Positions 2,371-63,071 are shown, numbered from the stretch's first letter. The stretch is DNA of 64,000 bases from an uncultured Enterobacteriaceae bacterium (GCA_964400745.1 CAYNVY010000003.1:865-64864), one strand, 5' to 3'. Numbers and translations: made by a program. The notes: generated by a model from the letters alone, not told the origin.

Positions 2371-3072
2371 CGGGAGGAGCGGTACGAGCGGCTGATTCAC
2401 GGCAGAGCGTTTCGCAGCATGATTAATCCACGGTGTTTGCCCGCCTGCCGACACAAGCGTTGCCGGCAGCAGAATCGGCCGCGCAATCGGTGCGCCGCGG
2501 CGTTTCAGGATGGATACGGCGAGCCCGCCCTGGTGCGTGGCGAGCGCGATGCGCAGCGCCGCAGGTGAAGGTTCGCGCGCGGCTGCGACGGGGCGGAACA
2601 GCACGACGAGACCGCCCCCGCCCTCGGCGGCGAGTTGCAGACGCCGCAACTGGGGGAAGGCGGGCGCGCGTGGCCAGAGGAGCACGCCGCCGCAGGCCGC
2701 CGAGCGCAGCGCCTGCTCCGCCGCCCACAGTGCGTCGCCGTCCCTGGCAGTCTTGACGATGACGATGCGGGCCAAGTCGATGCCGGCCGCGGCGAGCGCG
2801 GGCGCGTAGGGCAGGTGGGGCGGCGCGATCCAGGCGATGAAGCGGCCCTGCGCGGCAAGCTGCGCCAGCGCCGGGCCGAGGATGCGCAACTCGCCTATGC
2901 CTTCGTGCTGCGGCAGGATTTCGGTGAGCGCGCCGCAGGGCCAGCCGCCGCCCGGCAGTTCGGCGTCCAGCGGCGCAAAGCCCGAGGCGATGCCGGGACA
3001 GGCGGGGCGCGCCAATTCGCTGCCGCGCCAGACGCCGGGGTACTGCTCGAGTGCGGCCGCGGGGCTGGGCAT
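2131..3072 (-). CDS. imuA: ImuA (RecA/SulA-like SOS protein) with an anomalous C-terminal read-through tail
   Basis: From ATG 3072: MPSPAAALEQYPGVWRGSELARPACPGIASGFAPLDAELPGGGWPCGALTEILPQHEGIGELRILGPAL..., an ImuA-type motif (GF.PLD..LPGGGWP.G.LTE). GGAGAG precedes the ATG and a LexA box lies 17 nt upstream. Similarity fades near 2400-2440, but the first stop is TAG 2133-2131. Confidence 0.75.
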   Translation of the reverse strand: MPSPAAALEQYPGVWRGSELARPACPGIASGFAPLDAELPGGGWPCGALTEILPQHEGIGELRILGPALAQLAAQGRFIAWIAPPHLPYAPALAAAGIDLARIVIVKTARDGDALWAAEQALRSAACGGVLLWPRAPAFPQLRRLQLAAEGGGGLVVLFRPVAAAREPSPAALRIALATHQGGLAVSILKRRGAPIARPILLPATLVSAGGQTPWINHAAKRSAVNQPLVPLLPLIPQAPVHQITQRLATHETAEIIEPQIEHAISVVGGVAGNVRCDDQIGHAPVLRRSRQWLGIDHIEHSAPQGAAAQPRE

Positions 3073-3088
3073 GGGCTCTCCAAGAAAA

Positions 3089-3104
3089 CTGTATATCCAT
3101 ACAG
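3089..3104. promoter_or_regulatory. LexA (SOS) box CTGTATATCCATACAG upstream of imuA
   Basis: Perfect CTGT-N8-ACAG. It shares the flanking context AAAACTGTATAT...TACAGTATCC with the box at 1261-1276. Confidence 0.8.
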
Positions 3105-3131
3105 TATCCAGAGCTTTAGCCGTTTTGTCTA
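3103..3131 (-). promoter_or_regulatory. Predicted sigma70 promoter of imuA (-35 TAGACA, 17-nt spacer, -10 GATACT overlapping the LexA box)
   Basis: Minus-strand reading TAGACA (3131-3126), 17 nt, GATACT (3108-3103). Confidence 0.5.
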
Positions 3132-3156
3132 CCCGACAATTGCAAAGGGCCAGACG

Positions 3157-3198
3157 CAAGGTCAGGAACACAAGGTCAGGAACACAAGGTCAGGAACA
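3157..3198. repeat. Perfect 3 x 14-bp tandem repeat (CAAGGTCAGGAACA)3 in the imuA/uup divergent region
   Basis: Units at 3157-3170, 3171-3184 and 3185-3198 are identical. Confidence 0.95.
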
Positions 3199-3307
3199 TT
3201 TTGTCGCTTCGACCTATTCGCAGCCGGGCTTCATGGCCGATCTCACATGCGAGCGCCACGAGAAGCTGCCGATTACGGAAATCCGCTCGGTCAAGACCGC
3301 GCCTGAC

Positions 3308-3367
3308 GTCGACAAAACGCGGTAAACGCCCCGGGATGGGGTATCCTTGGGGCCGTTTTCCGTCGAC
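3308..3367 (+). promoter_or_regulatory. 60-nt nested imperfect palindrome (possible leader hairpin) just upstream of the uup start
   Basis: GTCGACAAAACG (3308-3319) pairs with CGTTTT-cc-GTCGAC (3354-3367). GCCCC (3328-3332) pairs with GGGGC (3349-3353). GGAT (3334-3337) pairs with ATCC (3343-3346). Confidence 0.5.
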
Positions 3368-3378
3368 ACCCCCTCCCG

Positions 3379-5298
3379 ATGCCTCTTATCCAGCTTTCCC
3401 AGGTCTCCCTGGCCTATGGCCATGTGCCCCTGCTCGATCACGTCGATCTGGTCATCGAGCCGGGCGAGCGCATCGGTCTGATCGGCCGCAACGGCACCGG
3501 CAAGTCCAGCCTGCTGAAACTCATGGCCGGCACCGCAGCCGCCGATGACGGCAAGGTTTGGCGCGGGCCGGAGCTGAAACTGGCGAGCGTGCCGCAGGAG
3601 CCCGCATTCGAGCCCGGTTTGAGCGTGTTCGAAGCGGTGGCGGAAGGGCTGGGAAAAGGCACTCAGCTGCTCATCGATTATCACGCCGCCGCCCACTCCC
3701 TGACCGCAGCGCACGACGCCGGTGCGCCGGCGGATCCTGCCCTGATGGAGCGGCTGCACGAGTTGCAGGAAGCGCTGGACGCGAGCGACGGCTGGAGCCT
3801 GGAGCACAAGGTTGCGAGCACGCTGTCGCGCCTGCAACTCGACGCTGACAGGCAGGTGTCGGAACTGTCCGGCGGCTTGAAAAAACGCGTCGCTCTGGCA
3901 CGCGCTCTGGTGCTGGCGCCGGATCTTCTGATTCTGGACGAACCGACCAACCACCTGGATGTGGCTGCGATCGAATGGCTGGAGCAGATGCTGCTGTCCT
4001 ATTCGGGCAGCGTGCTGTTCGTGACCCACGACCGGCGTTTCTTGGACAACGTCGCCACCCGGATCATCGAACTCGACCGCGGACTCCTCGGCAGCTACGA
4101 GGGCAATTTCAGCGCCTACCAGCAGGAGAAGGCGGCGGCGCTGGAAACGGAAGCCGTGCACAGCCGCAAGTTCGACAAGTTCCTGGCGCAGGAGGAAGTC
4201 TGGATCCGCCAGGGCATACAGGCGCGGCGAACGCGCAACGAAGGCCGGGTGCGGCGCCTGGAAGCGCTGCGACTGGAGCGCGCGGCACGGCGAAGCCGCG
4301 TCGGCAAGGTGGCGCTGGCGGTGGACGAAGGCGAGCGTTCGGGCAAGCTGGTGGTCGAATTGCGCGAGGTCGGCAAGCAATACGGGGGCAAACCGGTGGT
4401 GCGGGATTTTTCCTGCCGCATCCTGCGCGGCGACAAAGTCGGCCTGATCGGACCCAACGGCAGCGGCAAGACCACGCTGCTCAAACTGATCCTGGGCGAA
4501 ACCCAGCCGGACGAAGGGCTGGTGAGGCTGGGCACCAAGCTCGATTTCGCCTATTTCGACCAGTTTCGCGCCACCTTGGACGAGGAGGCGACGCTCGCCG
4601 ACACCATCAGCGTGGGCGGAGATTTCGTCGAAGTCAACGGCGTGCGCAAGCACGTGATCAGCTACCTGGGCGACTTCCTGTTTCCGCCGGAACGGGCGCG
4701 CGCGCCGGTCAAGTCACTATCGGGAGGGGAGCGCAACCGCCTGCTATTGGCGCGCCTGTTCAGCCGGCCGGCCAATGTGCTGGTGCTGGACGAGCCGACC
4801 AACGATCTGGATATCGAGACGCTGGAACTGCTGGAGGAACTGCTGCAGGACTATGCGGGTACCTTGTTCCTGGTGAGCCACGACCGGGCGTTTCTCGACA
4901 ATGTCGTGACGCAGACCATAGCCAGCGAGGGCGAGGGGGGGTGGAAGGAGTACGCCGGCGGCTTCAGCGACTGGCAGCGGGTGCAGTCCGCGGCCAAAGC
5001 CGAGGTTCCGGCGCGGCGCGGGCAAAAGCCCGCGGGGCAGTTAAAGAAAACGCCCACCGGATCGGCGCCGGTTAAATCTAGACTTAGCTTTAAGGAAGAT
5101 AAAGAACTATCTGAACTTCCTGGTAAAATAGATATCCTGGAAAAGGAGCAGAGCCAGATCACGGCCGCGCTTGCCAACGCGGCGCTATACCGGGACCAGC
5201 CCGAGCAGGTGAAGCAATTGAACCTGCGCTTTGCCGCGTTGGAGGCTGAACTCGCGTCGGCCATGCTGCGCTGGGAGCAACTGGAAGCGAAACGCTGA
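3379..5298 (+). CDS. uup: ABC-F family ATPase Uup
   Basis: 639 aa with two ABC cassettes: Walker A GRNGTGKSS and GPNGSGKTT, signatures LSGGLKKR and LSGGERNR. No TM segments. The C-terminal coiled-coil tail (SFKEDKELSELPGKIDILEKEQ...) matches Uup. Confidence 0.9.
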   Translation: MPLIQLSQVSLAYGHVPLLDHVDLVIEPGERIGLIGRNGTGKSSLLKLMAGTAAADDGKVWRGPELKLASVPQEPAFEPGLSVFEAVAEGLGKGTQLLIDYHAAAHSLTAAHDAGAPADPALMERLHELQEALDASDGWSLEHKVASTLSRLQLDADRQVSELSGGLKKRVALARALVLAPDLLILDEPTNHLDVAAIEWLEQMLLSYSGSVLFVTHDRRFLDNVATRIIELDRGLLGSYEGNFSAYQQEKAAALETEAVHSRKFDKFLAQEEVWIRQGIQARRTRNEGRVRRLEALRLERAARRSRVGKVALAVDEGERSGKLVVELREVGKQYGGKPVVRDFSCRILRGDKVGLIGPNGSGKTTLLKLILGETQPDEGLVRLGTKLDFAYFDQFRATLDEEATLADTISVGGDFVEVNGVRKHVISYLGDFLFPPERARAPVKSLSGGERNRLLLARLFSRPANVLVLDEPTNDLDIETLELLEELLQDYAGTLFLVSHDRAFLDNVVTQTIASEGEGGWKEYAGGFSDWQRVQSAAKAEVPARRGQKPAGQLKKTPTGSAPVKSRLSFKEDKELSELPGKIDILEKEQSQITAALANAALYRDQPEQVKQLNLRFAALEAELASAMLRWEQLEAKR

Positions 5299-5408
5299 GC
5301 TCGCATGGAACTGCGGCAGGCCTCACCGCTCAGGCGACTGGGCGATGACGGTCAATGGTAGCCATTGGATGGAAATACTATCTTCACTCCGGACTACCTA
5401 TACTTCGA

Positions 5409-5481
5409 GTTGACAATAGCGTTATAATGATTGACAATAAAAATTAATTTAATTTACAATTAATTTAATTGTGATTGACAA
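5409..5481. repeat. AT-rich island of iterated words: (T)GATTGACAA-type x3 and AATTAATTTAATT x2
   Basis: GTTGACAATA at 5409-5418. TGATTGACAA at 5428-5437 and 5472-5481. AATTAATTTAATT at 5442-5454 and 5458-5470. Confidence 0.9.
5431..5460 (+). promoter_or_regulatory. Predicted sigma70 promoter of the HTH-GHKL-STAS gene (-35 TTGACA, 18-nt spacer, -10 TACAAT); implies a near-leaderless mRNA
   Basis: TTGACA 5431-5436 and TACAAT 5455-5460. The GTG start at 5471 lies only about 4 nt beyond the expected transcription start. Confidence 0.5.
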
Positions 5482-6496
5482 ACATGCCCTGAGGCGCCGA
5501 GCATTGGTGCTTATCGCCGAGGACGGTCGCAGTGCGACGCGTAAGCTCGTGGCCGAATTCGGACTCTCGCGTCAAGCCGCGAACGGCCATTTAAAGGCAT
5601 TGCTGCGCGACAATCAGGTTGAGGCCGAAGGTAGCACCAGGGCGCGGGTCTATCGGCTCGCCACTATCGCGGAAACCATTCGCGACTATCCCGGCGGGGC
5701 CCTGCGGGAAGATGTTGTGTGGAGTGAGGTGTTTGCACCCGCCGTGGCGGAATTGCCGGAGAACGCTCGCGACATTTGGCGCTACGGTATTACCGAGATG
5801 GTGAACAATGCCATTGACCACTCGGGTTCAGCCCTGGTCCATGTGGGTGTCCGCCGCAACGCTCTCTACACCGACGGCTGGGTAGCCGACGATGGCGAGG
5901 GTATCTTTCTCAAGATCCAGCGGGCGTTCGGCCTCTATGATCCGCGCGAAGCCATACTCGAACTGGCCAAGGGCAAGCTGACCACGGACCCGCGCAACCA
6001 CTCGGGCGAGGGTATTTTTTTCGCGTCCAAGGTGCTCGACGCCTTTGACATCCGCTCCGGGCGCCTGCACTTCATGCACGGTAGCGGCGCGCTCGATGTG
6101 TTGACGGAGCGTTCGGCAGATGCGCCCGGAACCTTGGTCCTGATGCGGCTTGCCAACGACAGCGCCCGTACTGTGAAGTCAGTGTTCGACGAGTACGCCG
6201 CCCCGGAGGAATACACGTTCGCGAAGACGCTGGTGCCGGTCCGGCTCGCGCAGTACGAGGGCGAGAAACTGGTGTCGCGCTCCCAGGCAAAGCGGCTTTA
6301 CCAGCGCTTCGAGCGCTTCCGCCACGTGGTACTGGATTTCGATAGCGTTGCCGAGATCGGTCAGGCATTCGCGGACGAACTGTTTCGGGTCTTCGCGACC
6401 GCACATCCGGGCGTAACGCTTGTGCCGATCAACATGAGCACCGCGGTCGCTCAGATGGTCAGCCGTGCGCTGGCAAGCACGACTGGGCCAGCATGA
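5471..6496 (+). CDS. Orphan fusion protein: N-terminal winged-HTH, GHKL (histidine-kinase-like/anti-sigma-kinase-like) ATPase core, C-terminal STAS-like (DUF4325-type) domain
   Basis: HTH-like segment RKLVAEFGLSRQAANGHLKALLRDNQV. Bergerat-fold motifs EMVNNAIDHS (N box), DDGEGIF (G1) and SGEGIFF (G2). The C-terminus LVSRSQAKRLYQRFERFRHVVLDFDSVAEIGQAFADELF resembles STAS_2/DUF4325. Confidence 0.7.
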   Translation: MIDKHALRRRALVLIAEDGRSATRKLVAEFGLSRQAANGHLKALLRDNQVEAEGSTRARVYRLATIAETIRDYPGGALREDVVWSEVFAPAVAELPENARDIWRYGITEMVNNAIDHSGSALVHVGVRRNALYTDGWVADDGEGIFLKIQRAFGLYDPREAILELAKGKLTTDPRNHSGEGIFFASKVLDAFDIRSGRLHFMHGSGALDVLTERSADAPGTLVLMRLANDSARTVKSVFDEYAAPEEYTFAKTLVPVRLAQYEGEKLVSRSQAKRLYQRFERFRHVVLDFDSVAEIGQAFADELFRVFATAHPGVTLVPINMSTAVAQMVSRALASTTGPA

Positions 6497-6511
6497 TCCG
6501 GGCGGTCGGAT

Positions 6512-7741
<1,230 letters not shown>

Positions 7742-7859
7742 AATCGATTTTCAAAAGTCCCTAGACTGGTGGATTCGCTTGCTGCGCTTCGCCAAACAAC
7801 ATGACTCGCCCATGCACCCATTGCGTCCATCGCATCGTATCGGTGCAACGACTCCCGGC

Positions 7860-7868
7860 ATTCTAACA
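7860..7868 (-). promoter_or_regulatory. Possible extended -10 promoter element for dapL (TGTTAGAAT)
   Basis: Minus-strand TGT-TAGAAT, about 120 nt upstream of the dapL ATG. No good -35 element. Confidence 0.3.
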
Positions 7869-7986
7869 TTTGCCATCATCGCAATCGGACGCTGCGCAGG
7901 GCAAAATTTTGAGGGAAACAACGGGGCTTGCGTGAATTGTCACGCGGCTAACGGTTTCCCGAGTGAGCCATAGAGTCCCGGTTATT

Positions 7987-8011
7987 GAAAAATGGGGTTC
8001 GAGTTCTCCAT
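7987..8011 (-). terminator. Possible intrinsic terminator after the three-gene operon
   Basis: Minus-strand RNA AUGGAG-AACUCGAA-CCCCAU followed by UUUUU. The stem has 5 of 6 pairs. It starts about 19 nt after the stop at 8030. Confidence 0.4.
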
Positions 8012-8029
8012 CCGCTGGCGCAGGTTCGA

Positions 8030-9283
8030 TCACTTTATGTTGATTTCACAGTCGGCTGCCTTGGCGCCGTCGGTGTAGAACTTCCAGTCCCAGAGCGCGA
8101 CGATGCGTTGCCGGTTCAGCTCGTTGTACCGGGCGCTTTCGGTGACTAAGCCGTCGGCCCTCTTCAAAGCTTGCATCGCGGCGACGCGTTCCCTGTCGAG
8201 GTTTCGGGTGTCGTCGATTCTTGCCTGATAGTCTTCGCAGGAAATCTTCGGATAGTAGACGGCGGGCTTTCTGTACCCGGGGCTCAGGCGCTCGAAGTAT
8301 TCATTGGCCAGGTTGAAATAGGCGGTCTTGTACGGCTGGTCGTGTACCCTCGACATGTCGGCGTAGTCCTTCAGGATGACGTTCTTTTCGTCTTCGCTGA
8401 CGGCCCGATCGGATTTCAGCTTGTCCACCAGCTGCTGCAGCCGGTCGTACGCTTTCGGCATGAAGGTGTTTTCGACCAGCTTGTCGTAGTTCTCACAATC
8501 AGCAAGCTCCGGCAGCCAATGTCTCCGGGTGGTTGATTCAGCCGCATGCGGATTGCCGTCCTCCAGGTCCAACTGCGTGGAGACCTGGTAATTCGCATTC
8601 ACCTCCGCCTTGCACTCCGCCGTGGTCATACCTTCGTACCTGCCTAGTCCGGCAGGCTTGGGCCGGGCCAGGCGCTCGAAAAAATAGTTGCGGCATCCGC
8701 TGGCAAAATGCGGCGGGCCCTGGCAGAGGGAGGCTTTTGCCGGAAGATTGGACTTGGCCCAGTCGCGGCCGGCGAGGAACTGTCCATGACGACGCTCGGC
8801 GATCTGGCTCCGGCATCCGCGTTTGAACTCCGCGGACCCCGGGCATTCCGAACCCCGGATCGGCACCCTTTCCCTGGCCCAGTCGCGGCCGGCGAGAAAC
8901 TGTTCGCTTTCCGGTTCCGTGCGCGAGGCGCGATTGGGCGGCGTGCCGATCGAAGCGACCGGGACGAGCATCAGCATGAACAGCGGCCACAGCGTGACGA
9001 CTAGATAGCCGGCCGCTTTGGTCCTGGCACGCGCATCCTTGAAACTGCGGATCGCATTCAGCAACAATTTCACGAACGCCAGGAGCACCCCCGGCGCAAT
9101 GGCAATGCTCAAATAGCCGAAAACGGCCAGCAAAACGGGATCCGACCTATCCGTGGCCCCGATCAGCTTAATGCCGAGACCGAGGCACTGTGCCAGAACG
9201 GAAAGTGCGATGACGGCAATGGCGGTGCCGTTCAATATCCGGGGCAGGGACGGCCGGTCCATGGTTTCCTGTTCTGTCGTCAT
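8030..9283 (-). CDS. Hypothetical membrane protein (3 predicted TM helices plus a Cys-containing extracytoplasmic region with a tandem 40-aa repeat)
   Basis: The ORF 8030-9544 was trimmed to ATG 9283 (MTTEQETMDRPSLPRILNGTAIAVIALSVLAQ...). It has three hydrophobic helices and the repeat QFLAGRDWA(R/K)...C.G...F..GCR twice. No family recognised. Confidence 0.6.
   Translation of the reverse strand: MTTEQETMDRPSLPRILNGTAIAVIALSVLAQCLGLGIKLIGATDRSDPVLLAVFGYLSIAIAPGVLLAFVKLLLNAIRSFKDARARTKAAGYLVVTLWPLFMLMLVPVASIGTPPNRASRTEPESEQFLAGRDWARERVPIRGSECPGSAEFKRGCRSQIAERRHGQFLAGRDWAKSNLPAKASLCQGPPHFASGCRNYFFERLARPKPAGLGRYEGMTTAECKAEVNANYQVSTQLDLEDGNPHAAESTTRRHWLPELADCENYDKLVENTFMPKAYDRLQQLVDKLKSDRAVSEDEKNVILKDYADMSRVHDQPYKTAYFNLANEYFERLSPGYRKPAVYYPKISCEDYQARIDDTRNLDRERVAAMQALKRADGLVTESARYNELNRQRIVALWDWKFYTDGAKAADCEINIK
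8755..8905. repeat. Internal 120-bp tandem duplication inside the membrane-protein gene
   Basis: TGGCCCAGTCGCGGCCGGCGAG(G/A)AACTGT(C/T)C at 8755-8785 and 8875-8905: 29 of 31 identical, exactly 120 nt apart and in frame. Confidence 0.9.
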
Positions 9284-9314
9284 GTTCTTCGATTGCCCGA
9301 TCCGGCCCGCCGCA

Positions 9315-10799
9315 TCAGTCGCGCGCAAGCGCGTCGCCCATTCGCTGCAATCGCAACCGCACGGGATGCACCGGCTCCAGCGGTGCGTACAACACCTGCA
9401 GTTCGGCGACCGCAGCGCGCAACAAGGCGGCAGCCGCTGAATCGGAAATCGTGAAGCGCCGCCAGCAGTCCGCGTCGATAACGGGAGGCTTCGCAGCCGG
9501 CTCGCACGCCGCCAGCGCCCAGGCCGCGCGAGTCGCGGGCGCATCCCGGTACGCCTGCTCCATCAACTGATTGCTCTGGTCTTTGGGCAGCCAGAGTTCG
9601 GCGCGCGCCAATCGCAGGATGTCAGCGCGAAGTTCGATCGAGCGCAAGGCCGGATAGAGCCCGAGCGCCTCTTCGGGCCGCTCGGCGACGGAAATGCTGC
9701 CGATCACGGCTTTGACGATGCGCGGAATAAACGCCGGATCGGCATTGGGCAGCTCGCTGGCCAGTTTTTTGAAGGTGCCGGGAAAATTCCTGTCCGGCAG
9801 ATACAGCCAGACGCTGGCTCGGGGAGTTTGCGCGCCTGCTTCGGGAACGAGATACATCATCGCTCCGCCGTTTGCCTTCCGGCGCTCGCCGGACAGGGCG
9901 ACCGTGCGGGTGTCCTCGCCCACTTTCGCAACCAGCTCGACCGGCGCGCCGCCTTCGCTATCGAGCGCAATCGACACCGTCAACGCATGACCCGCAAGGT
10001 CCTGCCCGGCGAAATCCATCCACATCCGCCCATCGGCGACGCGGACCCGTAGGCTGTCTTCCGGCTTTGCGTCGGCCCCCCGCGGCACCAGGGGCACGAG
10101 GCGGACTCGCTCCAGCGCAGACTCTAGAGACAGCGCATTGCCCACCGCGATCGGGCCTTGCGCCAGGGCAGGAAATCCCCATTCGCGCCGCTCGCGCGCA
10201 TAGGCCGCACACTCGGCCGCAGTGGGGTTGGTTGCGCATTCCCCGTGCCGGCTTCGGGCGACCAGCGCATCCACGGCGAGCCGGGCTAGCGTGTCGGCGG
10301 AGTCGACGTCGAAGCCCTTGATCTGCAGTCGTTCAGGTTCGATCCAGGCTCTGTTTCGCAGAAAGTCCGCCAGGCGCTTGCGCACCGGGTGATCGCCGCC
10401 GGTAATCGCGCTGCTCGCCTTGGCCGCCACCAGGCGTCCTCTGAGGTCGTAGTCGATGTTTGCCCTAATCGACAGGGTGCGCGCGAGAGGCCATCGTTCC
10501 CCCTTGTCGCAGTTCAATTCCAGTATGCCTTTCGGTTTGCCGTCGGCTGGGGCTGCCTGGGGCAGGATGCAAACGTAGCCGTCCTTCTCGAGGAATTCGA
10601 CGACGGATTCTGCCTTCATGCCGTGATAGGCCCAACGATCGATGCCGGCATAGCCTGGGCTATGGGTTCCGGTATAGAACGCAATGGCAGGATCGACCCC
10701 TGGGGGCAAACTGCCGCTACCGACAAGACTCAGGTCGAGCAACGCCGTCAGCAACGCCGCGACGACCAGGACGATGGCACCCGCGCGCCGCCAACTCAT
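9315..10799 (-). CDS. Hypothetical protein with an N-terminal signal-anchor
   Basis: 494 aa. MSWRRAGAIVLVVAALLTALLDLSLV is hydrophobic. The ATG overlaps the upstream stop (ATGA at 10796-10799). No recognisable catalytic motif. Confidence 0.6.
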   Translation of the reverse strand: MSWRRAGAIVLVVAALLTALLDLSLVGSGSLPPGVDPAIAFYTGTHSPGYAGIDRWAYHGMKAESVVEFLEKDGYVCILPQAAPADGKPKGILELNCDKGERWPLARTLSIRANIDYDLRGRLVAAKASSAITGGDHPVRKRLADFLRNRAWIEPERLQIKGFDVDSADTLARLAVDALVARSRHGECATNPTAAECAAYARERREWGFPALAQGPIAVGNALSLESALERVRLVPLVPRGADAKPEDSLRVRVADGRMWMDFAGQDLAGHALTVSIALDSEGGAPVELVAKVGEDTRTVALSGERRKANGGAMMYLVPEAGAQTPRASVWLYLPDRNFPGTFKKLASELPNADPAFIPRIVKAVIGSISVAERPEEALGLYPALRSIELRADILRLARAELWLPKDQSNQLMEQAYRDAPATRAAWALAACEPAAKPPVIDADCWRRFTISDSAAAALLRAAVAELQVLYAPLEPVHPVRLRLQRMGDALARD

Positions 10800-28038: not shown

Positions 28039-31000
28039 GTGCGCCTGACCCAGATAAAGCTTGTAGGATTCAAATCCTTCGTTGACCCGACTTCGATCGA
28101 AGTGCCGGGCCAGCTCGTCGCCATCGTCGGTCCGAACGGTTGCGGCAAGTCCAACGTGATCGACGCCGTCCGCTGGGTGCTGGGCGAGTCGCGCGCGTCG
28201 GCGCTGCGCGGCGATTCGATGCAGGACGTGATCTTCAACGGATCGGCGCAGCGAAAGCCGGTGGCGCGCGCCAGTGTCGAACTTATGTTCGACAACAGCC
28301 TGGGCAAGGCCGCCGGGCAGTGGTCGCAATACGCCGAAATTTCGGTGAAGCGCGTATTGACGCGCGACGGCGAGTCCCTGTACTACATCAACAACAGCCA
28401 CGTGCGCCGGCGCGATATCACCGACATTTTCATGGGCACGGGCCTCGGGCCGCGCGCTTACGCCATCATCGAACAGGGCATGATCTCGCGCATCATCGAA
28501 GCCAAGCCGGAAGAACTGCGCGTGTTTCTGGAGGAGGCGGCGGGCATCTCCAAGTACAAGGAGCGGCGCCGCGAGACCGAGCACCGGCTGCACGACACGC
28601 GGGAGAACCTGTCGCGGGTGGCGGACATCTGCCAGGAACTTGCGCTGCAGATCGACAAGCTGGACCAGCAGGCCAAGGTGGCGATGCAGTTCAAGGAGTT
28701 GCAGGGCGATATGCAGCGCAAGCAGAACCTGCTCTGGCTGCTGCGCAAGATGGAGGCCGACAACGAGGCGCAGCGCCATGCGCGCGAGATCGAGCGCGCG
28801 ACGAACGACCTCGAAGCCGAGACGGCGAACCTGCGCGAGATAGAAAAGCGCCTGGAAGAAGTTCGCGGCCTGCATTACGAGGCGGGAGACACATTGAGCG
28901 GCGCGCAGGGCGAACTGTATGCGGCCAACGCCGAGGTCCAGCGCCTGGAAACCGAAATCCGCTATATCAACGAGAATCGCGCCCGCCTCGAAAGCCAGAT
29001 TGCAAAGCTGACCGCGCAGAGCGGGCAGTGGCAGCAGCAGGCGAGCGAGTTGAGCGCTGCGCTCGACATGTGGCAGGGGCGGCAGGGGGGGGCTGGCGAA
29101 AGGCTGCAACTGGCGCGCGACCGGGTCGCGCTCGACTCGGCCAAGCTGCCCGAGGCGGATCAGGCTTTCCGCGCTATCCAGTCCCGGCTTTCGGGCGAGC
29201 GCAGCGGCTTGGCGCAGGCGGAGCAGGCGCTGAGGATAGAGCAGACCCATATCAGCCATGCAAACAAGACCCTGCAGGGCCTGGCCTTGCGCCAGGAGCG
29301 CTTGCTTTCCGAGCACCAGGGACTGGCCAAACCGGATTCGGCCGCGATCGAAGCGCAGCAGAGCGAGATCGCCGAATTGTCCGAGCAGCTTGCGCGCAAG
29401 GAGGCGCAGCTTGCGTCGCAACTGCAACAGTTGCCTGAACTGAATAGCGCGCGCCGCACCGCCCAGGAAAAGCTGGATGCGCAGCAGCGGGAGCAGGCCG
29501 GCTTGGAGTCGCGCCTGGCGACGCTGAAGCAGGTGCAGGACCAGGTCGAGAGCAATGCACAGATCCACGAATGGCTGATCCAGCACAACCTGGATTCGCT
29601 GCCGCGCTTGTGGCAGCAGGTCAGAGTAGAGATCGGGTGGGAAACAGCGTTCGAGGCAGTGCTGCGCGAGAAACTGCACGCGGTGGAAGTGTCGCAAGCC
29701 GAATTGCTGCAGAGCATGCTGGCGGATGCGCCGCCGGCCAAGCTCAGCGTTTTCGCAGCCACCACGGTAGTTCAGGATCCGGCGCTCGACGGATTGCGGC
29801 CTTTGGCCTCGCTGCTGGGCATTCACGACGAAGCCGTGCGCGGCGTGATGCAGGATTGGCTGCACGGCGTGTATGCAGTCGAAACTGCACCCGACGCGCG
29901 GGCCAGGCAGGCGCTGCCCCCGGGCATCATTCTGGTCAATCGGGACGGGCATCAATTCTCGCGCAGTGCGGTCAGTTTTCACGCGCCGGATCCGGGGGAT
30001 ACCGGCATCCTGGCGCGGCAGCGCGAAATCGAGGACCTGAGCGCCCAATTGAGCGCGCGCGAAGGCGCGCTGCGCCAGGCGCGAACCGAACAAAGCGTGG
30101 TCGAATCGGCGCTGGGCGGGCATAGCCAGCGCCTGGCGACGTTGCGCCAGGAAGCGGCTGCGTTCAAGCAGCAAGTGCACGAGCAGCAAATGGAAAGCCT
30201 CAAGCTTTCCCAAGGGCTGGAGCGCTACCAGGAACGCAGCCGGCAAATCCAGTTGGAGATGGATGAAATATCGCATCAGCAGGAAATAGAGCAGTCCGCC
30301 CAGGTCGCTGCCGAGGCCAGCCTGGCCGAACAGCAGCAGGTCATGGAGGAAGCGAGCGCAAGGGTGCGGGCTGCCGAGGAGGCGCACAAGCAGGCGGAAG
30401 ATGCGTTGAACGCGCAGCGCCAAGCCTTGCAGCAAGCCGAGTACGAAGAGCAGCAGTCAGTATTCTATGAAAAGGAATGCTCTTCTAAAATCAATGAAAT
30501 AAATACTTCTATTAAAGTAATACTTGAGCAAACAAGCGGTGCGGAAAATCAGCTTGAGCAGTTGAAAGCGGAACTGTCCGTGCAGCAGGACCAGGACTTG
30601 AAGCTGCGCTTGCAAACGCACCTGGAATTGCGGGTGCAGCGCGAGCAGGCGCTGAGCGAGGCGCGCTCCCGGCAGGAGGAATTGGCGCAGGCGCTGCGCA
30701 GCGCCGAGGATGAACGCGTGGTGTGCGAGCAGAAATTGGAGCCATTACGCAACCGAATCAACGATCTGCGCTTGAAAGAGCAGGCGGCGCGGCTCAACAA
30801 GGAGCAATACGCCAATCAGCTGTTCGAGGCCGGGGCGGACGAAGAGACGCTTGCGGCCATGCTGGAAAAAGGCATGCGGCCCAATGCCTTGCAGGTGGAG
30901 ATCAACCGTTTGTCGCAGGCGATAACGGATCTCGGAGCGGTCAACATGGCCGCGCTGGAGGAGTTGGAGACCAGCCGCGAGCGCAAGGGTTTTCTCGACG

Positions 31001-31554
31001 CCCAGGCGGTCGATCTGAATACCGCGCTGGAAACACTAGAGGCCGCTATCCGCCGCATCGACCGCGAAACGCGAGAGATGCTGCAGCAGACCTTCGACAC
31101 GGTGAACGGGCATTTCGGTCAATTGTTTCCCAGCCTGTTCGGCGGGGGGGAAGCGCGCCTGCTCATGACGGGCGAGGAGATTCTCGACGCGGGGGTGCAG
31201 GTGATCGCACAACCGCCGGGCAAGAAGACTTCCACCATCCACCTGCTTTCGGGCGGCGAGAAGGCGCTCACCGCGCTGGCGCTGGTGTTTTCCATGTTCC
31301 AGCTCAATCCGGCACCGTTCTGCCTGCTGGACGAGGTGGACGCGCCGCTGGACGACTCGAACACTGAGCGCTTCTGCGATCTGGTGAAGCGCATGTCGGC
31401 CGAAACCCAGTTCCTCTACATCAGCCACAACAAGATCACCATGGAGATGGCGGCGCAGCTGGTCGGCGTGACCATGCAGGAGTCCGGCGTGTCGCGCGTG
31501 GTCGCGGTCGACATCGAGGAAGCGCTGCGGCTGAAGGAGGATCTGGCCGCATGA
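28039..31554 (+). CDS. smc: Chromosome partition protein Smc
   Basis: 1171 aa, GTG start. Walker [10 protein letters not shown], long coiled coils, C-terminal [13 protein letters not shown] and Walker [12 protein letters not shown]. Confidence 0.95.
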
Positions 31555-31689
31555 GCCTAGGAGCAGGGGCCACGCGAAGCGGGGATGCGACCCGGGCGAA
31601 TGCGGCCGGACGCCGACAGTACGGTTTTTGTATAGCGTTATTCGCACGGAGGCGGTGCGCATGAGCACGGACGCAAGGAGGCGGCGCCA

Positions 31690-31695
<6 letters not shown>
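31549..31695 (+). repeat. Intergenic cassette copy A (smc/zipA spacer), homologous to 62237-62354; contains a GNA-triloop hairpin (31570-31584) and a duplicated SD+ATGAGC module
   Basis: Shared blocks CATGAGC, GGAGCAGGGGCC, GGGGATGCGACC, GCCGACAGT and (A/C)GGAGGCGG.GCG..ATGAGC. About 56 of 72 core positions are identical by hand alignment. Confidence 0.85.
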
Positions 31696-35635
<3,940 letters not shown>

Positions 35636-60320: not shown

Positions 60321-60358
60321 GCGCGCCGGCAAGGCGCTGGCGCGCCGCTTTGCTTCTC
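60321..60358 (+). terminator. Probable intrinsic terminator of the upstream barrel gene
   Basis: GCGCGCC (60321-60327) pairs with GGCGCGC (60339-60345) and is followed by the T-rich CGCTTTGCTTCTCTT. Confidence 0.5.
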
Positions 60359-60372
60359 TTGATCAATATCAA
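60359..60372. promoter_or_regulatory. Perfect FNR/CRP-family box TTGAT-CAAT-ATCAA upstream of hoxF
   Basis: Matches the FNR consensus TTGAT-N4-ATCAA exactly. The centre is about 41 nt upstream of a start point implied by a weak -10 TAGCTT (60394-60399). Confidence 0.6.
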
Positions 60373-60430
60373 ACGCCTCGGCCCTGTAGCGCGTAGCTTA
60401 GTTGCAGACAGGACAATCCCAGAGGCCCCC

Positions 60431-62242
60431 ATGACTGAAACACCGGACCCGGTTGCGCAGGTCGTTTCGGCAACCATCGCCCGCTATCGGGAAAATCCGC
60501 ACTATATCCTGCAGATGCTGCGCGAAATCCAGGAAGCATGCGACTGGATCTCTCCCGAGGCGATCGATCGCCTGCAGAGCGAACTGCGCCTGCCGCGGAC
60601 AAAGATCGAAGGCGTAGCCGGATTCTATGCGTTCCTGTACTCCCAGCCGCGCGGCCGCTACCGCGTCCTGTTCAGCGACAATATTACCGATCGCATGCTG
60701 GGTAATATGGAACTGCTCGACTACATGTGCGAACAGCTTTGGGTAGAGCGCGGCAAGACCTCGGAGGACGGCCTGGTGAGCATCGATACCGCCTCCTGCA
60801 CCGGCATGTGCGACCAGGGGCCTGCATTGCTGGTGAACAACTACGCCATCACCCGTATGACACGCAGCCGGGTGGATGAAATCTGCGAACTGATCCGCGG
60901 CAAAGTTCCGCTTGCCGCCTGGCCGGCCGACTATTTCCGTGTGGAAGACCAGGTGGTGCGCAAAGACATTCTGCTCGCCAGCGAGCTCGCGCCCGGAGTT
61001 GCGCTTGCCGCGGGGCTCGCCCGCGGGCCTGAGGCGCTGCTGGGCGAGGTCAAGGCGTCGAACCTGCGCGGCCGCGGCGGCGCGGGCTTTGGCACCGGGC
61101 TGAAATGGGAGGCCTGCCGCAACGCCCAGGGCAAGGTGCGCTACGTCGTCTGCAACGCCGACGAAGGCGAACCCGGCACGTTCAAGGACCGCGTGCTGCT
61201 TACGTCCCACGCGGACGCGGTGTTCGAGGGCATGACGCTGTGCGCGCTGGTTACCGGGGCGAAGCGGGGCATACTCTACCTGCGCGGTGAATATCGCTAC
61301 CTGCTCGACCGCCTCGCCGCCGTTCTGGCGCGCAGGCGGCAAGGCGGACTGCTGGGCGAATGCATACTGGGGCGGGCCGGCTTCGGCTTCGATATCGAAA
61401 TCCATCTGGGGGCCGGCGCCTACATCTGCGGCGAAGAGTCGGCACTGATCGAATCGCTGGAAGGCAAGCGCGGAACGCCGCGCAACCGCCCGCCGTTTCC
61501 CGTTACGCACGGATATCTGGGCCAGCCGACGGTGGTAAACAATGTCGAAACCTTCGCCGCGTCCTGTCTGATCGCCGAGCGCGGCGGCGCCTGGTACGCA
61601 GGCATCGGCACCGCTGCTTCGGCCGGCACCAAGATTCTAAGCGTCTCCGGCGACTGCGCCCGGCCGGGGCTGTACGAGTATCCGTTCGGGGTAAGCGTAA
61701 GCGAGGTACTCCAAGCCTGCGGCGCAGCCGATGCGCAGGCGGTACAGGTGAGCGGGCCGTCGGGCATCTGCGTTTGCGCGGCGGAGTTCGATCGGCGCAT
61801 CGCCTTCGAAGATCTGCCGACGGCCGGCGCGTTCATGGTATTCAACGGCAGCCGGGACATGTTCGAGGTCGCGCGGAATTTCGTTCATTTCTTCGCGCAC
61901 GAGAGCTGCGGTTTTTGCACTCCGTGCAGGGTGGGCACATCGCTGCTGAAGAAACTCATGGACAAGCTCAACAACGGCCACGGTTCGCCCTACGATCTGG
62001 CCGAGATCGAGAAGTTGAACCGTCTCCTGCAGTCCATGAGCCACTGCGGGCTGGGCCATTCGGCGTGCAATCCGGTGCTCGATACCATCGCCAAGTTCCG
62101 CCCTGCGTACGACAAGCGCCTGCAGCACAAGGAGTTTGAGCCTGCATTCGACCTGGACCGGGCCTTGCGAAAAGCGCGGCAGATGACCGGGCGCGACGAT
62201 GCCGGTGCGCACTTCGCCGCCGACTCGGGGAGGGCGACATGA
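60431..62242 (+). CDS. hoxF: NAD-reducing [NiFe] hydrogenase diaphorase subunit HoxF (NuoE-like plus NuoF-like fusion)
   Basis: Trimmed to ATG 60431. GRGGAGFGTGLKWE, VVCNADEGEPGTFKDRVLL and ESCGFCTPCRVG. Collinear with Ralstonia-type soluble hydrogenase HoxF. Confidence 0.9.
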   Translation: MTETPDPVAQVVSATIARYRENPHYILQMLREIQEACDWISPEAIDRLQSELRLPRTKIEGVAGFYAFLYSQPRGRYRVLFSDNITDRMLGNMELLDYMCEQLWVERGKTSEDGLVSIDTASCTGMCDQGPALLVNNYAITRMTRSRVDEICELIRGKVPLAAWPADYFRVEDQVVRKDILLASELAPGVALAAGLARGPEALLGEVKASNLRGRGGAGFGTGLKWEACRNAQGKVRYVVCNADEGEPGTFKDRVLLTSHADAVFEGMTLCALVTGAKRGILYLRGEYRYLLDRLAAVLARRRQGGLLGECILGRAGFGFDIEIHLGAGAYICGEESALIESLEGKRGTPRNRPPFPVTHGYLGQPTVVNNVETFAASCLIAERGGAWYAGIGTAASAGTKILSVSGDCARPGLYEYPFGVSVSEVLQACGAADAQAVQVSGPSGICVCAAEFDRRIAFEDLPTAGAFMVFNGSRDMFEVARNFVHFFAHESCGFCTPCRVGTSLLKKLMDKLNNGHGSPYDLAEIEKLNRLLQSMSHCGLGHSACNPVLDTIAKFRPAYDKRLQHKEFEPAFDLDRALRKARQMTGRDDAGAHFAADSGRAT

Positions 62243-62354
62243 GCAGGGAGCAGGGGCCCCATGTAATGGGGATGCGACCGACCGCGATTGGCGCCGACCG
62301 CCGACAGTGGCTGCGCTGGAGTTGTAACAAGGGAACGGAGGCGGCGAAATGAGC
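62237..62354 (+). repeat. Intergenic cassette copy B (hoxF/hoxU spacer), homologous to 31549-31695; hairpin CCCCAT-GTA-ATGGGG at 62257-62271
   Basis: Same ordered blocks as copy A. The whole spacer is one 37-codon ORF (62239-62352) joined to both neighbours by ATGA overlaps. Confidence 0.85.
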
Positions 62355-63071
62355 GCGACTTTCACTCTTGACGGCAAGGACATCCCGTTTGCCAAAGGGC
62401 AGACCGTCATGCAGGCGGCACTGGACGCCGGCGTTTACATACCGCACCTGTGCTATCACCCGGAATTCAAGCCACACGGATCGTGCAAGCTGTGCACGGT
62501 CAAGGTCGACGGGCGCCAGATCGCGTCCTGCACCACGCTGGCGCAAGCCGGGATGGAAGTGGAAAGCGACACCGAGGCGCTGAATGACCAACGCCGGATG
62601 CTGACGCAGATGCTGTTCGTGGAGGGCAATCATTTCTGCCCGTCCTGCGAAAAGAGCGGCGATTGCACGCTGCAGGCCACCGCCTATCAGCTCGGGATGA
62701 TGTCGACGCACTTCGTTCCCTTCTTTCCGAGCCGGCCGCTGGACGCGTCTCATCCGGACCTGCTGCTTGATTTCAACCGCTGCATATTGTGTTCTCTCTG
62801 CGTGCGCGCCAGCCGCGACGTGGACAGGAAGAACGCGTTTGCGCTCTCCGGTCGGGGCATAGGCACGCATCTGATCGTCAACGCAAAGTCCGGCCGGCTC
62901 GCCGATACCGATGTTACGCTGCAGGACAAGGCGGTTCAGGTGTGTCCGGTGGGCGTGATTCTCAGAAAGGACAGGGGGTTCGCGGTTCCGATCGGCAAGC
63001 GGACTTTCGATCTCAAGCCCATCTCGGGCTATGTAGATGCGGACGCCCCGGCCGCGAAGGACCGACCATGA
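62349..63071 (+). CDS. hoxU: NAD-reducing hydrogenase diaphorase iron-sulfur subunit HoxU (NuoG N-terminal-like)
   Basis: [2Fe-2S] and [4Fe-4S] Cys patterns: CYHPEFKPHGSCKLCTV, HFCPSCEKSGDCTLQ and RCILCSLCVRA. Confidence 0.9.
   Translation: MSATFTLDGKDIPFAKGQTVMQAALDAGVYIPHLCYHPEFKPHGSCKLCTVKVDGRQIASCTTLAQAGMEVESDTEALNDQRRMLTQMLFVEGNHFCPSCEKSGDCTLQATAYQLGMMSTHFVPFFPSRPLDASHPDLLLDFNRCILCSLCVRASRDVDRKNAFALSGRGIGTHLIVNAKSGRLADTDVTLQDKAVQVCPVGVILRKDRGFAVPIGKRTFDLKPISGYVDADAPAAKDRP

Follow-up and report, generated by a model that had tools for sequence, protein, structure and literature searches.

The closest described counterparts of the element reported here are the interspersed repetitive units of mycobacteria (MIRUs): one account (PMC12548453, citing Supply 1997) presents them as mobile repeats that insert at start codons, with the open reading frame (ORF) of the repeat coupled to the gene through an overlap of -4 nt, and a second (PMC3184786) describes filled and empty sites together with ORFs that overlap adjacent genes. 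From betaproteobacteria, a GC-rich intergenic repeat of ~90 bp, BRE (Beta-proteobacterial repeat element), has been reported (Hot et al. 2011, PMC3110155), and this was the only described betaproteobacterial element of the same kind returned by our literature search; searching the literature by sequence gave unrelated primers only. Here, we analyse a stretch of 64,000 nucleotides deposited under an uncultured Enterobacteriaceae bacterium (GCA_964400745.1 CAYNVY010000003.1:865-64864; the whole stretch is referred to as the window), in which the spacer between smc and zipA (copy 1) and the spacer between hoxF and hoxU (copy 2) are copies of a widespread, apparently undescribed repeat of ~110 nt from uncultured Betaproteobacteria, both belonging to a subfamily that starts at an ATGA stop/start overlap (the ATGA subfamily). 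Our findings indicate that this repeat is probably dispersed by insertion into ATGA overlaps in a manner that preserves the coupling of termination and reinitiation between neighbouring genes, and is functionally like the mycobacterial MIRUs. The unit is itself an ORF in register with both neighbouring genes, a property that goes beyond the original prediction made from the sequence of the window.

The original prediction held that the two spacers are copies of one portable cassette sharing about 56 of 72 positions, and alignment with MAFFT agrees closely: between CATGAGC and GCCGACAGT, 54 of 71 positions are identical. This similarity is clearly above composition-matched background, as local alignment of one spacer against the other gives a score of 48 compared to 18.3 +/- 2.9 for dinucleotide shuffles (maximum 33, n = 2000), a difference of ~10 standard deviations. 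Across the 64 kb there are exactly two occurrences of the 33-nt pattern GGAGCAGGGGCC-N9-GGGGATGCGACC, one at 31560-31592 and one at 62247-62279; both have 0 mismatches, and 100 shuffles gave 0 matches. The spacers also share a 3' module, ACGGAGGCGG(T/C)G...ATGAGC, which had been predicted to be doubled at smc/zipA and is indeed found there at 31646-31666 and 31675-31695, and in the hoxF/hoxU spacer at 62334-62354 (by direct reading); the unit, as proposed, thus unites the context of a stop, a spacer and the context of a start, the last consisting of a Shine-Dalgarno (SD) sequence and ATGA. Searching the window with nhmmer --max and the family profiles gave no third copy; a weak profile match at 34855-34911 lies inside a GalU-like coding sequence and was rejected as a chance match. 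Neither spacer holds a sigma-70-like promoter or an intrinsic terminator, and Rfam gave 0 gathering-level matches in the window, with chance-level matches only at E <= 10.

The unit can be recognised as an insertion because relatives have plain ATGA overlaps at both the smc/zipA and the hoxF/hoxU junction. These empty sites read ...GCCGCATGAGCGAGCTG and ...GAAATGAGCGCGACT, and comparison with them reveals that the left CATGAGC, like the ATGAGC at the start of zipA or hoxU, was native to the junction and was doubled by the insertion: the element adds its body and a new GGAGG-N8-ATGA module, entering directly after ATGAGC and ending in a second ATGAGC. The claim that the 3' block supplies both the SD and the start of the downstream gene thus stands for the module, which is borne by the element, and needs refining for the start itself, since the ATGAGC of zipA and hoxU is native. 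At smc/zipA, one relative (L242, with a ZipA 75% identical to that of the window) exhibits the plain overlap ...CTGGCCGCATGAGCGAGCTG, and a second (L243, 70%) has the same sequence as L242 with 110 nt added after ATGAGC, ending GCGCATGAGC. A third (L241, 85%) resembles the window in possessing the unit together with a 29-nt link that forms a 10-codon ORF from ATGA to ATGA, and two more (L244, 1476-1500, 70%; L245, 1474-1500, 68%) have spacers of 25-27 nt that resemble the 3' module only (ACAGGCGGCGCGCATGAGC) and are probably deletion remnants of the element. All smc/zipA relatives share one SMC C-terminus (..ELAA*), which makes the left border native sequence. In case of hoxF/hoxU, the overlap is plain in the closest relative (L246, HoxU 95.6% identical, on the same contig as L241). 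The same holds for L247 (88%), Azonexus (L248, 79%) and, judged from gene coordinates only, the P0124 contig (92%). The orthologous unit is present in L174 and L193 (HoxU 82-83%), where it is 81-89% identical to that of the window with the variable tail included. Both borders bear (GC)ATGAGC in direct orientation, as would result from either a short duplication of the target or recombination between microhomologous sequences.

In order to find further copies, we scanned a genome collection with the pattern GGAGCAGGGG-N9-19-GGATGCGACC and metagenomes with a pattern restricted to ATGAGC-N2-3-core, which gave at least 119 stretches (four of those listed being obvious chance matches) and at least 120 stretches, respectively. 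The same unit stands between unrelated gene pairs at more than 240 retrieved loci, as expected of a portable cassette. Nearly all of the listed genome matches are labelled as metagenome-assembled genomes (MAGs) of Betaproteobacteria, Burkholderiales, Thiobacillus, Sulfuricella, Nitrosomonadales, Casimicrobiaceae or Hydrogenophilales, and the named homologues of the window's ZipA at 66-70% identity come from Burkholderiales or Pseudomonadota MAGs. The window's own ZipA occurs on a 65.8-kb NCBI contig and a Logan contig only, and the window itself would appear to derive from an uncultured bacterium of Burkholderiales-like affinity. The flanking genes are unrelated operon genes with no function in common (ABC ATPases and permeases, RmlA/RmlB-like, FabI-like and FtsA proteins among them). 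At many listed loci the units form head-to-tail arrays with a period of 107-136 nt, and arrays of 2-4 units occur. Taken as a whole, the superfamily is intergenic in nearly all loci and is found in all gene contexts and in both orientations.

The ATGA subfamily is distinguished by its reading frame. In the 148 distinct copies of this type, an ATGA placed 3-6 nt before the core provides, with its TGA, the stop codon of the upstream long ORF, and 128 of these copies lie directly after a long co-directional ORF. The small ORF that begins at the same ATG has 37 codons in 71 copies, 36 in 25 and 38 in 14, and in 107 of the 148 it is terminated by the TGA within another A/GTGA, in a chain that runs into a long ORF or to the contig end. 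As such a chain is in register by construction, the downstream start was also defined independently, as GGAG followed after 4-11 nt by ATG or GTG: for the 111 copies analysed in this way, the distance from ATG to start was 110 nt in 63 copies, 107 in 20, 113 in 11 and 116 in two, and the unit length was 2 mod 3 in 98. This excess is maintained when the modal length of 110 is left out (35 of 48; binomial p = 2.4e-8) and when each distinct combination of linker, hairpin and tail lengths is counted once (18 of 30; p = 0.0025), with hairpin (9-18 nt), linker (4-6 nt) and tail varying in length in ways that offset one another. Stop codons inside the units are likewise unevenly distributed, with 4 in the frame of the small ORF compared to 76 and 50 in the other two frames. 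The variants with GCAG (copy 2) and GCCTA (copy 1) read the identical core in different frames, and a second 1-nt difference restores the register; the final third of the small ORF is the stretch least conserved at the nucleotide level. Judged from these sequence comparisons, conservation is not at the level of the peptide.

The second line of evidence comes from RNA structure. The core exhibits the same order in 132 copies: GG/CC, a 1x2 loop of A versus GA, GCA/UGC, a 4x1 loop of GGGG versus A and a terminal stem-loop. The latter is variable in both length and sequence and displays many compensatory changes, with G-C to A-U in 30-36 copies; GCA/UGC is replaced by ACA/UGU in two divergent copies. 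The flanks of the core split into subfamilies, yet a further outer stem is always formed, and true flank pairs are more stable than pairs exchanged between copies (-29.9 vs -25.9 kcal/mol, p = 2e-10). This outer stem, P0, consists of the last 6-11 nt of the upstream gene and the A(U) of AUGA, paired with unit positions ~48-56. When folded with its smc flank, copy 1 reaches -59.7 kcal/mol compared to -47.2 +/- 3.4 for shuffles (z = -3.7), with 0 of 200 shuffles as stable. P0 is also copy-specific, with 5.07 of six possible Watson-Crick pairs formed compared to 4.42 +/- 0.055 when the flanks are permuted, and its internal strand follows the local gene end (GGAACT/AGTTCC, GAAGCCAT/ATGGCTTC, GACCGCAT/ATGCGGTC, TTCGCAT/ATGCGAA, GCGCCATGATC/GATCATGGCGC). 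At smc the native strand is unchanged and the strand of the element is off consensus; at hoxF the unconstrained protein tail varies too. A second helix, P4, pairs unit positions 58-63 (GCCGCC) with 101-106 (GGCGGC) and overlaps the new SD: five of its six positions are paired in 88-100% of 51 ungapped copies, the sixth (59/105) in 49%, and complementarity is 5.20 compared to 4.96 +/- 0.044 after permutation, with GCUUCC/GGAAGC and GGCACC/GGUGCC as examples of covariation. Likenesses of the core to a K-turn, an integron attC site, domain V of a group II intron and a CsrA sponge, considered on reading its sequence, were set aside, since registers or consensus motifs do not appear to fit.

The features of the two copies, all on the + strand, can be placed in the window. 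Based on Pfam, copy 1 is preceded by SMC (28039-31554) and followed by ZipA (31690-32745) and LigA (32745-34775). Its 110-nt unit (31551-31660) begins with the A of the ATGA at the smc stop, finishes one base ahead of the following ATGA and matches the family profile with an nhmmer E = 8.7e-20. The first bridging small ORF, of 37 codons and a TGA (31551-31664), overlaps the smc TGA with its ATG and the next ATG with its own TGA, and has the subfamily's modal length, seen in 71 of 148 instances. The last smc codons and the AU of AUGA form the 5' strand of P0 (31542-31552); this strand is native smc sequence, identical in the empty site of L242, and pairs with 31600-31610 in the minimum free energy fold. 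Between the two strands lies the invariant core hairpin (31560-31592), with GG/CC, A x GA, GCA/UGC, GGGG x A and the variable stem-loop. The 3' strand AUGCGGCCGGA (31600-31610) is complementary to the smc end and departs from the subfamily consensus UUGCCGCC in just the way that matches the local smc sequence. The first 3' module (31646-31666; GGAGG at 31648-31652, ATGA at 31661-31664) is kept across the subfamily. A second small ORF of 10 codons and a TGA (31661-31693) leads from this module to the zipA ATG (31690); the same 29-nt, 10-codon link is found in L241, with only ~57% of the bases the same. The second 3' module (31675-31695) joins GGAGG at 31677-31681 to the native ATGAGC that starts zipA.

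Copy 2 lies between a HoxF-like NAD(H)-binding diaphorase subunit (60350-62242) and a HoxU-like 2Fe-2S/4Fe-4S subunit (62349-63071), both assigned by Pfam. Its 110-nt unit (62239-62348; nhmmer E = 3.5e-31) holds one bridging small ORF of 37 codons and a TGA (62239-62352), which overlaps the hoxF TGA and the hoxU ATG (62349). The P0 strands are GGCGACAU at the hoxF end (62233-62240) and AUUGGCGCC (62287-62295), which pair with one mismatch around the invariant core hairpin (62247-62279). From the complementarity of CCGCC (62298-62302) to GGCGG (62340-62344), the latter adjoining and overlapping the new SD, we infer that a P4 helix exists in this copy as well. The 3' module (62334-62354; GGAGG at 62337-62341) ends in the ATGAGC that starts hoxU, as seen by direct reading and alignment. 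At the linker and the start of the core (62241-62256, GAGCAGGGAGCAGGGG), this GCAG variant consists of a direct 7-mer duplication, (GAGCAGG)x2, which may be the source of the one-base register difference between the GCAG and GCCTA variants. The last ~8 residues of HoxF (encoded at 62218-62242) differ per lineage, reading AADSGRAT, KTGSGEVT, NTDAGEGI, ATVAEEQK or TTVPGEQK across the window and L174, L193, L246, L247 and L248, with constant length within the Burkholderiales-like group; where the site is filled, the tail also provides P0 with its 5' strand and the small ORF with its SD. An origin of the hoxF tail from the element was considered and rejected, as the Azonexus outgroup and the L174 and L193 orthologues show it to be a native, fast-evolving stretch of constant length.

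Elsewhere in the window, the zipA/ligA junction is an overlap of one base (32745) with no element, and a plain ATGA overlap, likewise free of the element, joins the ligA stop (34772-34775) to the start of the gene that follows (GalU-like, by eye). A 45-nt direct repeat, with copies 1.8 kb apart and 78% identical, is found at 1257-1301 and 3085-3129; both copies contain CTGTATAT..ATACAG, which we take to resemble a LexA (SOS) box, and if these are LexA boxes the repeats would make two SOS-type operators 1.8 kb apart.

Further observations concern the wider superfamily. Five viral contigs match, one of which, of 26 kb and Mu-like by eye, holds six copies. Two contigs from IMG/VR carry 4-6 exact cores each, with tandem pairs spaced 135-138 nt apart: in L251 (IMGVR_UViG_3300033072_001221) the cores are at 685-713, 820-848, 3365-3393 and 3503-3531 on the - strand and at 4252-4280 on the + strand, and in L253 they span 2376-10124. 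L251 also encodes a Gam-like and a MuB-like ORF, by eye only, and may be a Mu-like prophage of a betaproteobacterium. No RAYT-like ORF (that is, one resembling the transposases associated with repetitive extragenic palindromes, REPs) was found flanked by inverted cores on the viral contig, again by eye only. Half-cores, in which the terminal hairpin and GGATGCGACC are kept and GGAGCAGGGG is gone, stand beside full copies at L060 5762-5791, L023 4301-4328, L038 7544-7573, L026 3891-3918, L004 6769-6796 and L073 6422-6451. A type B subfamily (L007 1606-1760 and ~28 other loci) exhibits GCATCCCGCTCC-GGGGTCGCATCC at about 50-60 nt downstream of its core. Each conserved block of the core has its complement in this stretch, but the arrangement, X, Y, X*, Y*, is not that of a simple hairpin; the stretch could form an alternative pairing or pseudoknot with the core.

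How insertion into an ATGA overlap could leave coupling intact can be proposed as follows. A ribosome ending smc or hoxF would already have unwound P0 and would reinitiate on the small ORF, translation of which would melt the long hairpin together with the P4 anti-SD helix; the ribosome would then terminate on the start codon of zipA or hoxU and reinitiate there. Without upstream translation both start regions would stay paired, such that independent initiation would be blocked. In this way the unit would hand on the coupling of the original overlap, and insertion would therefore be tolerated between the subunits of complexes and in essential operons.

Several points weigh against this interpretation. 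Translation of the small ORF is deduced from comparative constraint, the chain of overlaps breaks in 23 of the 148 copies and 13 of the 111 unit lengths are out of register, although some of these broken chains and lengths may reflect mis-called starts. The covariation of P4 is modest, making the evidence for this helix weaker than that for P0, and copy 2 alone is no more stable than its shuffles (z = 0.33). As copies were retrieved by exact patterns, the invariance of the core is partly circular. Independence is also lacking among orthologous loci that come from separate metagenomes. In other subfamilies the same core is found in antisense orientation or between convergent genes, and the core's own role cannot be translational. 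Occupancy of hoxF/hoxU does not follow HoxU identity, with filled sites at 100% and 82-83% and empty ones at 96, 92 and 88%, a pattern that sets no order among gain, transfer and precise loss between the direct modules that bear ATGAGC. Finally, the search for a transposase or other mobility factor near the copies was negative: when 2435 flanking ORFs were clustered all against all, only housekeeping families emerged, with no recurrent transposase-like family.

The resemblance to known palindromes raises the question of whether the repeat is an ordinary element of the REP type, or of the bacterial interspersed mosaic elements (BIMEs) that REPs compose, mobilised by a RAYT or kept for mRNA stability, with the ORF and the ATGA context incidental to GC richness. 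The core is indeed a GC-rich imperfect hairpin of about 29-39 nt, the superfamily is intergenic in both orientations with tandem arrays, G(G/T/C)AG motifs flank the core and copies are also present in a phage-like contig; however, incidental ORFs would not hold a length of 2 mod 3 through compensating indels, nor would they deplete the stop codons of a single frame. The ATGA-type copies, moreover, are essentially always sense to, and abutting, the upstream gene, arrays are head-to-tail and not alternating as in BIMEs, no inverted pair of cores surrounds an ORF among the 119 genome stretches listed and no recurrent transposase-like family appeared among the 2435 flanking ORFs. We thus consider this explanation unlikely, and the original claim that the unit is unlike ordinary REP elements needs to be divided: it is correct for the in-frame ATGA subfamily, whereas the hairpin core is common to REP-like subfamilies. 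Somewhat better placed, and possible if still improbable, is a cis-regulatory RNA of the host, in which the invariant core would be the binding site of a conserved protein or RNase, and this factor would set the expression ratio or the stability of the two halves of the operon transcript, with spread among operons being secondary. None of the retrieved copies varies in the unpaired GGGG, A and GA of the core, whereas the stems covary; changes in one strand or the other (native coding sequence included) preserve P0 and P4; and the orthologous copies are 81-89% identical where HoxU is 83% identical, which suggests long retention. Against this, there is no match to an Rfam family, the flanking genes share no common function, close relatives manage without the element at the same junction and the invariance of the core is inflated by the exact-pattern retrieval.

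Two further explanations can be dealt with more briefly. A functional small protein of ~37 codons, with nucleotide similarity reflecting protein conservation, would account for an ORF that is open and in register in most copies, but the two copies in the window read the identical 33-nt core in different frames (one giving MSREQGPHVMGMRP...) before a second indel restores the register, and the C-terminal third is the least conserved at the nucleotide level: this explanation is highly improbable, and is contradicted by the frame difference between the two variants. Chance, low complexity or a one-off gene conversion between two loci of the genome might be invoked given GC-rich sequence and the general similarity of SD-plus-ATGA contexts, but retains next to no probability, being refuted by the distance of the alignment score from shuffles (~10 standard deviations), by a pattern not expected once in 64 kb and by the hundreds of copies elsewhere. 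Within the favoured explanation of insertion with preserved coupling, the insertion itself could be guided, with some core-recognising machinery directing a small non-autonomous element to ATGA overlaps and the P0 segment that pairs with the upstream gene end selecting, or being templated by, the target. That native gene ends as different as TTCGCAT, GAAGCCAT, GACCGCAT and GCGCCATGATC meet with perfect complementarity over 7-12 bp fits such guidance, but is equally explicable by compensatory evolution after insertion, which is what the hoxF and smc orthologues suggest; we therefore view guided insertion as quite unlikely.

If insertion with preserved coupling is correct, the repeat represents an independent second case, in another phylum, of the strategy proposed for MIRUs: it would colonise the tightest of operon junctions by turning into a translated link between two genes. 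Its hundreds of copies would provide comparative evidence that this link is selected, through register maintained by compensating indels, depletion of stop codons in one frame and covarying helices over the AUGA and the SD, and would make it possible to test how far a termination-reinitiation relay can reach and whether coupling is made strict by structure. In gene calling and operon prediction, such "spacers" of 100-140 nt will be mistaken for uncoupled intergenic regions, and the unit would be a natural template for synthetic coupling cassettes. The presence of the core in non-coupled subfamilies and phage-like contigs points to a recognition factor in uncultured Burkholderiales-like bacteria.

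Comparison with described repeats shows which properties are shared. BRE is of the same class, being often tandem with variable copy number and mostly located between co-directional genes (PMC3110155), but BRE sequences contain neither core block, give no nhmmer match and align at the level of shuffles; they also possess T- and A-runs, and no ORF bridging stop and start is reported for them (PMC3110155). With REP/BIME elements (PMC2817692) the repeat shares a GC-rich imperfect palindrome that is extragenic, multi-copy, present in operon transcripts and clustered. The REP head GT(A/G)G is absent from the 5' end of the palindrome, where the core starts GGAG, and G(G/T/C)AG motifs occur 3-8 nt outside the core on both sides in some subfamilies only. 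Arrays are direct rather than alternating, with all listed multi-copy genome loci head-to-tail on one strand; as to RAYT association, none of the listed genome loci has cores on both strands, and, in contrast to REP/BIME elements, the ATGA subfamily is strictly sense-oriented and in frame. As with Correia/NEMIS, ERIC and RPE, the repeat is small, non-autonomous, co-transcribed with genes and able to supply expression signals, yet unlike these it has neither terminal inverted repeats nor a TA duplication. Features of miniature inverted-repeat transposable elements were not found by direct reading of the unit: its ends (GC(AG)GGAGCA... and ...GGAGGCGGCGGCATGA) are not inverted copies, and the border repeat (GC)ATGAGC is direct. 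Whilst RPE inserts in frame with host ORFs, the present element forms a separate coupled mini-cistron with no fusion to the neighbouring proteins.

It is the MIRUs that the element matches most closely. As the host is betaproteobacterial, membership in the MIRU family proper is not claimed: the phylum is different, the unit is ~110 nt compared to 40-100 nt in MIRUs, and the two are likened by function, not by sequence. The invariant hairpin core, which also occurs in non-coupled subfamilies, and the sequestering of the upstream AUGA and the new SD by covarying helices further set the present element apart. In spite of this, both are short units dispersed among operons, where they occupy intercistronic regions and run in the direction of the genes, and in both the unit contains an ORF that overlaps a neighbour's stop codon at one end and a neighbour's start codon at the other (-4 nt; here in both window copies and in 107 of 148 copies). 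Both also show empty and filled sites and variable tandem number (here arrays of 2-4 units), and for both the purpose proposed is insertion with minimal effect on downstream expression.

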